NCBI GenBank assembly: GCA_037200965.1
Contig: JBBCGK010000001.1
Span: forward strand, 433,992-497,991
Direction of reading: 5' to 3'
From: a bacterium
GTDB taxonomy: Bacteria > Patescibacteriota > Minisyncoccia > Phycocordibacterales > Phycocordibacteraceae
Length of the DNA: 64,000 bases
Positions 15,263 to 15,935 of the stretch are shown in pieces; position 1 is the first letter of the stretch; each line of letters starts with the position of its first letter. A model generated the notes under the pieces. That model saw only the letters and a program-made list of their open reading frames with translations, was not told the origin of the DNA and searched no databases. Position numbers and translations under genes: made by a program.

Positions 15263-15935
15263 GTTCTCACGCATTACTGCGTGCATCGGACTGTAACTTC
15301 ATCGGTTCTCGATGTTCAACGTTCAGTCTCTACGGGCGATATACCTCCGTATCCGCTTCTTGGAGTAGTTCAGTTCTCCGAAAGCGTTTACGAGTTCGAG
15401 CAATTTCTTGAATGCTGCCTGATTCTGTTCGCGCTTCTTGCAGTCCAGGACCTTCTTCAGGAGAGCGATCTGTTTCTTCTTCAACCGAACGAAAGGTTCG
15501 ACGAGTCGGATCATCTCTTCTAAGTCGTCAAGACGCTGCACCGTGTACTCGCACACGCCATCCTTGCGTTCCCGAAGGGAACCGAACGGCATAAGCGTAC
15601 ACATCTTCTCGAAAGAATCCTTCGACTTGGCGGACTGGAAGAACACTATCGCTGGTGCAATCTGGTATCCGAACCGATAGGTTGAATTAGGTTTTGCACG
15701 AACGTAGATGCTTCCATCCCCATCGAGGAATCCTGCGAGATAAGCCCTGTCAGTGTCAGATAGGCGAATTTGCTTCATATCTTCCCTCGGTATTATCCTA
15801 CCATATGACAGGTTAGGACTTCACCGATATAAGTTGAATTGTCGTACTGCATTCCTGCAATACGCCGCCGTGATCATGTCTTCTGCCTCGGGGCTCAGAC
15901 CGTTCAGTGGCCGATGCTTTCATCTAGCCGCTGAA
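15263..15935 (-). mobile_element. Group-I-like intron at the 23S I-CreI homing site (E. coli L2593 equivalent), ~673 nt
   Basis: Exon junction ...GGGTTCAGACCGT | intron | CGTGAGACAGGTTGG. Contains an I-CreI-like ORF. Confidence 0.7.
15323..15778 (-). CDS. I-CreI-family single-motif LAGLIDADG homing endonuclease
   Basis: [28 protein letters not shown] and [15 protein letters not shown] parallel I-CreI (YLAGFVDGDGSIIAQIKPNQSYKFKHQL; LKLKQKQANLVLKII). Located in the L2593 intron. Confidence 0.8.

Follow-up and report, generated by a model that had tools for sequence, protein, structure and literature searches.

A group I intron with a gene for an I-CreI-family homing endonuclease at position L2593 of a patescibacterial 23S rRNA gene

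We analysed a 64,000-nucleotide (nt) stretch of a patescibacterial genome (GenBank assembly GCA_037200965.1, contig JBBCGK010000001.1, positions 433,992 to 497,991; referred to as the window, with all positions below numbered along it). The 23S ribosomal RNA (rRNA) gene in this window is encoded on the minus strand (about 20235 to 14960), with a 5S gene following at 14869..14762, and is interrupted after the residue corresponding to Escherichia coli U2593 by a 675-nt insertion (15260..15934, minus strand). Our analysis indicates that this insertion is very probably a mobile L2593 group I intron that carries the gene for an I-CreI-family homing endonuclease in its loop L6 and resides in the single 23S gene of a member of the Patescibacteria, or candidate phyla radiation (CPR).

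The boundaries of the insertion were defined by mapping the exons and are the same in 76 related loci. The intron begins at 15934 and closes with a terminal G (omegaG) at 15260; the 5' exon ends with ...GGGTTCAGACCGT (15935) and the 3' exon starts with CGTGAGACAGG (15259). In a global alignment the break falls after position 2595 of the E. coli 23S copy that was used. Because this copy is numbered two positions too high (the landmark GGGATAACAGGC is found at 2447, whereas its standard position is 2445), the break corresponds to standard U2593. An initial annotation, made from the sequence without database searches, had placed the intron at L2593, the homing site of I-CreI, and the exon mapping confirms this placement with no offset. 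The insertion divides helix 93 of the 23S rRNA, which belongs to the peptidyl-transferase region. Both flanks of the junction are engaged in the pairings described below. The final 13 exon nucleotides on the 5' side (GGGUUCAGACCGU, 23S positions 2581-2593, 15935..15947, minus strand) include CCGU, which would form P1 with the intron sequence GCGG, and GGGUUCAGA(CC), which would pair with intron nt 34-44. On the 3' side, the exon starts with CGUGAGACAG (23S position 2594 onward, 15250..15259, minus strand), which is the partner in P10 and supplies the right half-site for the presumed endonuclease. The presumed intron-less target would be the pseudo-palindromic sequence ...TCAGACCGT|CGTGAGACAGGTTGG... 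(site stretch TTCAGACCGTCGTGAGACAGGTTGG).

The open reading frame (ORF) within the intron (15323..15778, minus strand, ATG start and stop codon included) encodes 151 amino acids (aa), exactly as first annotated, and contains a single 11-residue copy of the LAGLIDADG motif. It matches the Pfam family LAGLIDADG_1 over residues 14-107 (E-value 4.1e-11; score 44 bits, cut-off 23 bits), and a phmmer search of the PDB returned I-MsoI (3.4e-16) and I-CreI (3.6e-16), with the aligned part extending from residue 6 or 12 to residue 138 or 142 of the 151. A BLASTP comparison with I-CreI gave an E-value of 1e-21 and 31% identity across 131 aa; the I-CreI query was checked against PDB entry 1n3e, with a score of 351.8 bits and residues 1-163 aligned in each sequence. 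The initial annotation had described the ORF as co-linear with I-CreI on the basis of two peptide stretches; both are present, they align as described, and the formal alignment extends the correspondence to the DNA-contacting residues, most of which are kept. The matches in sequence and in insertion site are far beyond chance.

In the BLASTP alignment, D21, Q48 and K100 of the ORF occupy the positions of the catalytic D20, Q47 and K98 of I-CreI, and K29, N31, Y34, Q39, R69, R71 and E77 stand at I-CreI K28, N30, Y33, Q38, R68, R70 and D75. The C-terminal SKK of the ORF likewise matches DNA-contact residues of I-CreI. The three catalytic residues are unchanged in all 16 family members aligned, as are most of the DNA-contact residues. 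An AlphaFold2 model built from this 16-sequence alignment (predicted local distance difference test score, pLDDT, 86.7) has the order of helices and strands H-E-E-H-E-E-H-H-H, that is, the I-CreI-type core (alpha-beta-beta-alpha-beta-beta-alpha) followed by C-terminal helices. The best PDB folds found for this model with Foldseek were I-MsoI (TM-score 0.85, root-mean-square deviation 1.3-1.4 Å) and I-CvuI and I-CreI (TM-score 0.83-0.84), which are the three enzymes of known structure whose introns occupy this 23S position; they stem from chloroplast introns, not from archaea. Thus, by sequence, predicted fold and active-site residues, the ORF product is a predicted endonuclease of the I-CreI/I-MsoI family. 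Enzymes of the I-CreI type are homodimers that cut pseudo-palindromic sites of about 22 bp to leave 4-nt 3' overhangs.

Relatives of the intron were collected through the protein, to which 1,278 homologues were found at E≤1e-10. Five loci from reference genomes, all of them patescibacterial metagenome-assembled genomes (MAGs), and 80 metagenome loci were gathered (designated by L and three digits). Both exon junctions were present in 76 of these loci, and all 76 introns, which range from 669 to 1198 nt, are inserted at the identical position. With the window intron included, 77 introns have both ends, of which 73 terminate in G, and none of the 77 has a disrupted ORF. The ratio of nonsynonymous to synonymous substitution rates (dN/dS) of the ORF is 0.11 in the comparison with its closest relative (L008, 82% identical), and the median for 23 pairs is 0.09; purifying selection acts on the ORF outside the stretch that crosses J6/7-P7.

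Several of the collected loci deviate in their details. The L2593 introns of L005, L026 and L034 end in A or have a shifted 3' boundary. Those of L040 and L048 are about 1190 nt long, with some 550-580 nt after J6/7, which suggests an extra inserted element in their 3' parts. In L006, a Gottesmanbacteria MAG, a relative of the endonuclease with 28% identity is encoded in an insertion about 5 nt further downstream, after CGTGA, around E. coli position 2598; this insertion may belong to the neighbouring class that has been reported near position 2604.

To define the RNA structure comparatively, 21 introns of similar architecture were aligned after replacement of the ORF with a GAAA loop. In this set, 87.4% of the cells of the proposed P1-P9 structure are paired, compared with 30-43% when the partners were slid by one to three columns. 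Changes on both sides were found in 38 of the 70 pairs, and the observed values were reached by none of 500 shuffles. P3, P4, P6, P7, P8 and P9 each contain compensatory changes, and the support therefore includes the P3/P7 pseudoknot: both sides have changed in five of the six pairs of P3, and in P7 a G-C pair of the window takes the place of the A-U found in most relatives. RNAalifold independently recovered P1, P10, P2, P3, P4, P5, P6 and part of P8, an agreement that concerns the nested helices, as this program cannot draw the P7 pseudoknot. Core elements resembling R (GUAGAGACU) and S (AGAUAUAGUCC, which reads AAGAUAUAGUCC in the relatives) are also present. As judged by this covariation, the insertion belongs to the group I introns and has a well-supported core, and it would be expected to splice itself.

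All helices are encoded on the minus strand. On the 5' side of the ORF, the 8-bp P2 hairpin (15844..15863), which is capped by a GGAA loop of the GNRA type and shows compensatory changes in the relatives, is followed by the 5' strands of P3 (15838..15833) and P4 (15827..15823), the P5 hairpin (15818..15796), the 3' strand of P4 (15791..15787) and the 5' strand of P6, GGG(AA)GAUAU (15777..15786), defined from the covariation set. The 3' part of the core (15288..15342) consists of the 3' strand of P6 (15342..15334), J6/7 with the 5' strand of P7 (GUAGAGACUG, 15333..15324), the 3' strand of P3 (15320..15315), the P8 hairpin (15314..15300) and the 3' strand of P7, CAGUCC (15293..15288). The P9 hairpin with its GUAA loop (15283..15268) and a 3' tail to omegaG at 15260 complete the intron (15260..15283). 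From the start of J6/7 to the intron end there are only 76 nt, and the window intron does not contain P7.1/P7.2.

The ORF overlaps this core. It sits in loop L6, its ATG directly following the 5' strand of P6, and its final codons cross the 3' strand of P6 and J6/7 and enter P7, within which the UGA stop codon lies. A GAGG upstream of the ATG may serve as the ribosome-binding site. The conserved sequence CCCGUAGAGACU of J6/7-P7 (15323-15342 in the window) is read in three different frames by the ORFs of the family, whose products end in IARRD in the window, in ILPVETER (L008) or LVPVETKC, and in LTP in most cases, with L002 and L008 among the loci compared. The use of three frames across this sequence indicates that the RNA, not the peptide, is conserved there.

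The putative internal guide, UCACG|GCGG (15865..15873, minus strand), would pair through UCACG with CGUGA of the 3' exon (P10) and through GCGG with CCGU of the 5' exon (P1), placing a G.U pair at the splice site. Every one of the 77 introns contains GGCGG, and a CCGU:GCGG pairing with U.G is possible in 76 of them (the L085 exon has CCGG), the two strands being essentially invariant. P10, formed by the four or five bases before GCGG and the start of the 3' exon, is 95% paired and changes in step with the exon. Within the 21-sequence set the varying pair is CG in 15 cases and UA in six, and all six CGUAAG exons are accompanied by a UACG guide; among all 77 introns the pair is kept in eight of ten such cases. 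Exons with CGCGAG or CGCAAG have a GCG guide, the U-to-C change in the exon being met by an A-to-G change in two introns, and CAUG and CGCG variants keep P10 through wobble pairs.

A long hairpin over the 5' splice site, with a U-A pair, was initially taken for P1. The length series of the relatives argues against this assignment: in the shortest ones (L024, L059, L063, L072 and L075) the guide begins 5-7 nt past the splice site and P1 is simply a CCGU-loop-GCGG hairpin, so that the invariant downstream GCGG probably represents the canonical guide and the long hairpin an insertion in the P1 loop (L1). This insertion, which is missing from the shortest relatives, amounts to about 65 nt in the window intron. 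It contains a hairpin formed by intron nt 1-8 and 24-31 (15904..15934, minus strand), supported by covariation and by the same length series, and a putative second exon-binding segment, AC followed by GGUCUGAGCCC (intron nt 32-44, 15891..15903, minus strand), that is complementary to positions -13 to -1 of the 5' exon. Within this segment, nt 34-44 are complementary to exon positions -13 to -3. Exon-binding of this kind is widespread among the relatives: the exon variants CAGA, CAAA, UAGA, UAAA and AAAA are each matched by the intron segment, the matched run averages 8.2 bases against 5.7 in shuffles, and the pairs at alignment columns 5/70 and 7/68 covary among the 21 introns. Pairing of nt 34-44 together with P1 would form a pseudoknot and thereby a two-part guide for the 5' exon, in which the second part would bind exon positions -13 to -5. 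In introns of the window type there is also an alternative, in which the invariant AC pairs with G-2 and U-1 of the exon to give a continuous helix of about 19 bp with a U-A pair at the splice site.

Taken together, these features suggest the following life cycle. The intron would be transcribed within the precursor of the 23S rRNA and would fold into a compact group I core comprising P1-P10 without P7.1/P7.2. The UCACG-GCGG guide would align the exons, CCGU:GCGG forming P1 with U.G at the splice site and CGUGA:UCACG forming P10, while intron nt 34-44 would hold the upstream part of the 5' exon. Transesterification initiated by guanosine would then excise the intron and restore helix 93. The 151-aa protein would be made from the precursor or from the excised intron and would dimerise like I-CreI; the dimer would cut intron-less sites, and repair off an intron-bearing copy would spread the element between genomes. 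Dimerisation, cleavage and current mobility are all predicted here from the sequence.

Several points weigh against this interpretation. The Rfam group I model, RF00028, did not match the intron (15260..15934) at E≤10, where only chance microRNA-like matches on the P1 hairpin were returned, nor did it match the minimal relative L063 at E≤1, so that the group I assignment rests on our own comparative analysis; the same model does detect an ORF-less intron at 16313-16529 of the same 23S gene. The model is likely to miss the intron because L6 holds a 456-nt ORF and the subgroup is divergent. The comparative analysis used a MAFFT alignment and a structure that was first read off the window sequence, which somewhat favours the proposed fold. 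Furthermore, since the strands of P1 are invariant, covariation cannot test the U.G pairing at the splice site, and the competing continuous helix, with U-A in its place, is itself supported by covariation. Related loci were found through the protein, and decayed copies would have been missed, which biases both the count of intact ORFs and the estimate of selection. Finally, CPR genomes usually have one rRNA operon, which makes homing within a cell impossible.

In one alternative view, the insertion would not be spliced and ligated but either retained in the rRNA or excised without ligation in an RNase III-like manner to leave a fragmented 23S rRNA, and the group I-like fold would be a relic. 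The failure of the Rfam model would fit this possibility; some bacteria have 23S rRNAs in fragments or with insertions other than introns, and the same is suspected for CPR (PMC11270868), where earlier work on a chlamydial 23S gene with a group I intron that is not spliced is also mentioned (reference 28 in PMC11270868). We nevertheless consider it very unlikely. P3, P4, P6, P7, P8, P9 and P10 are kept by compensatory changes across divergent hosts, which points to selection on the catalytic fold. CPR rRNA insertions are, according to a passage citing Brown et al., removed from transcripts (PMC11270868). Moreover, helix 93, which the insertion interrupts, is part of the peptidyl-transferase region. 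An intervening sequence of the RNase III type was also inspected as a candidate and rejected: the insertion starts with UCAGCGGCUAG and finishes with GCGUGAGAACAUG, which lack complementarity to each other and therefore provide no stem of that type. Archaeal rRNA introns also encode LAGLIDADG endonucleases, and a protein enzyme cuts them at bulge-helix-bulge motifs. That the present element is such a protein-spliced intron is extremely improbable: by inspection, its junctions do not lie in two 3-nt bulges flanking a 4-bp helix, the 5' junction being inside a helix (P1) and the 3' junction following omegaG after the unpaired tail past P9. In addition, the R- and S-like elements and the P3/P7 pseudoknot are typical of group I, and the closest solved relatives of the protein are the I-MsoI, I-CvuI and I-CreI structures, not archaeal enzymes. 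Of the initial description of the system as chloroplast/archaeal-type, therefore, the affiliation with the I-CreI/I-MsoI family holds, whereas the archaeal part does not, the group I fold being supported by covariation.

Another explanation concerns the protein, which may no longer act in mobility and may be kept as a maturase or RNA chaperone on which the compact intron depends for splicing, or for some other host function. Some LAGLIDADG proteins, such as I-AniI, are bifunctional. A function of this kind would explain why purifying selection is strong in organisms that have only one rDNA copy (dN/dS about 0.1, with the ORF intact in every intron), and the window ribozyme is without the peripheral stabilisers P7.1/P7.2 that are present in cyanobacterial L2593 introns (PMC1995217). 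On the other hand, the catalytic Asp and most of the I-CreI DNA contacts are invariant, as expected of an active nuclease. To our knowledge, no maturase activity has been described for I-CreI or I-MsoI. Phylogenetic signs of horizontal transfer have been reported for site-specific CPR LAGLIDADG proteins (PMC11270868), and the intact-ORF count is biased by the protein-based search; a purely non-mobile role thus appears improbable to us. A related speculation combines the two-part guide with the continuous helix, which resembles rRNA helix 93: these may act as a folding switch that times splicing against ribosome assembly, and the element would then be partly domesticated, its protein serving as a maturase or in an assembly checkpoint. 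This proposal, which is based on the possible switch and on the strong selective constraint that the endonuclease shows in hosts with one rDNA copy, is doubtful at present. We thus favour a mobile group I intron with an endonuclease gene.

The element closely resembles known systems at the same site. The chloroplast 23S intron of Chlamydomonas reinhardtii (Cr.LSU), which encodes I-CreI, and the introns of the isoschizomers I-MsoI and I-CvuI occupy the same L2593 site and encode single-motif proteins of about 150-170 aa; I-MsoI shares 31-32% identity with the window ORF in the Foldseek structural alignment. Cr.LSU, too, is a group I intron with its ORF in a peripheral loop, which is L6 as in the window intron. 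The two differ in that the host of the window intron is a bacterium and that of Cr.LSU a chloroplast, and the window intron, at 675 nt, is shorter than Cr.LSU, which has about 888 nt. The overlap of the 3' end of the ORF with P6, J6/7 and P7 was also noted as unlike Cr.LSU. The I-CreI site (CAAAACGTCGTGAGACAGTTTG) is identical to the window target at 19 of 22 positions. I-CreI Q26, Q44 and S40 are replaced by R27, V45 and A41 in the ORF, and R51 has no direct equivalent; these residue changes may track the three target differences, which follow from a change of A-U to C-G in helix 93.

The initial annotation regarded a system of this kind as out of place in bacterial rDNA, a view that our survey and previous studies contradict. 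A survey of CPR genomes (Tsurumaki 2024, PMC11270868) found insertions in 82% of 23S genes, with ORFs of the LAGLIDADG_1 family concentrated at positions 1917, 1931, 1952, 2593, 2604 and 2657, position 2593 being a listed hot spot. Three cyanobacteria, Synechococcus C1 and C9 and Thermosynechococcus elongatus, carry L2593 group I introns with single-motif LAGLIDADG genes (Haugen 2007, PMC1995217), likewise in a bacterial 23S gene, and 76 further introns were collected here. As far as can be compared by description, the ORF of the cyanobacterial introns also extends into core elements, and P5 and P2 are short as in the window (PMC1995217). The cyanobacterial introns are 744-748 nt long and have a P7.1/P7.2 extension of about 65 nt that the window intron does not have (PMC1995217). 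P7.1/P7.2 may possibly be present in the many CPR relatives with longer 3' parts, where it was seen by eye only in L005.

Among the CPR insertions, 23IS12 (PMC11270868) shares with the window intron the host lineage, position 2593, the Pfam family and the single-domain protein, and the window element is therefore a further member of a class that has already been catalogued in CPR. The same study demonstrated cleavage and dimerisation for the CPR enzyme I-ShaI (PMC11270868), which derives from the 23IS7 site, whereas the window ORF derives from position 2593. It typed introns by the Rfam model, by which the window intron and at least one of its relatives would be counted as unclassified ORF-bearing insertions. 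Our analysis adds that this family, which escapes Rfam, has a fully supported group I core, that its protein retains the I-CreI active site and most DNA contacts, and that two separate segments of the intron seem to bind the 5' exon.

On its own, one more patescibacterial rRNA intron with a LAGLIDADG endonuclease at a catalogued site is of little import. However, as the standard Rfam screen misses the L2593 family, published counts of group I introns in CPR rRNA genes are probably underestimates. In addition, more than 1,000 natural relatives of I-CreI and I-MsoI, directed at a slightly different 22-bp site, could aid the engineering of meganucleases. The proposed two-part binding of the 5' exon provides a testable feature of how compact ribozymes cope with the highly structured context of rRNA.

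The host is represented by a CPR metagenome-assembled genome. The nearest named relatives of the FtsK protein encoded in the window are about 70% identical and come from Minisyncoccota, Paceibacterota and Parcubacteria. The window proteins that were checked, namely the endonuclease ORF and FtsK, are identical to those on contig JBBCBH010010897.1 (GCA_037975565.1). Many proteins of the window have no NCBIfam match.

The rRNA genes in the window contain several other insertions, all on the minus strand. An ORF-less group I intron of 296 nt (16269-16564) follows E. coli position ~2262 of the 23S gene and is the one recognized by RF00028 (16313-16529, 67.6 bits). An interruption of about 970 nt (16892-17870), located between E. 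coli positions 1917 and 1931, looks like two introns parted by the mini-exon CCUAAGGU (17091..17084); its 5' boundary is at 1917, 1919 or 1923, as the global alignment scattered E. coli 1864-1933 through the neighbouring intron. The upstream candidate intron encodes a 179-aa LAGLIDADG_1 protein (17726..17187, Pfam E-value 3.8e-21) with PDB relatives among I-OnuI-type halves, I-TnaI and I-CeuI, and its downstream neighbour at L1931 (17083..16892) is ORF-less. Compared with E. coli, the 23S gene also has about 280-320 nt of extra sequence between positions 1704 and 1770 (18060-18411) and 52 nt after position 226 (19963-20014). These stretches could be expansion segments or intervening sequences; a 140-aa ORF that overlaps extra 23S sequence had no Pfam match. 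The 16S gene is split into two parts (2093..1571 and 837..1, the latter running off the window) by an insertion of about 733 nt that encodes a 247-aa LAGLIDADG_2 protein (1483..740, Pfam E-value 1.5e-32). The rRNA genes do not form one operon: the 23S-5S pair occupies 20235..14762, and the 16S gene lies about 12.7 kb further on the same strand, with long ORFs, which are possible protein genes, between the 5S and 16S genes.

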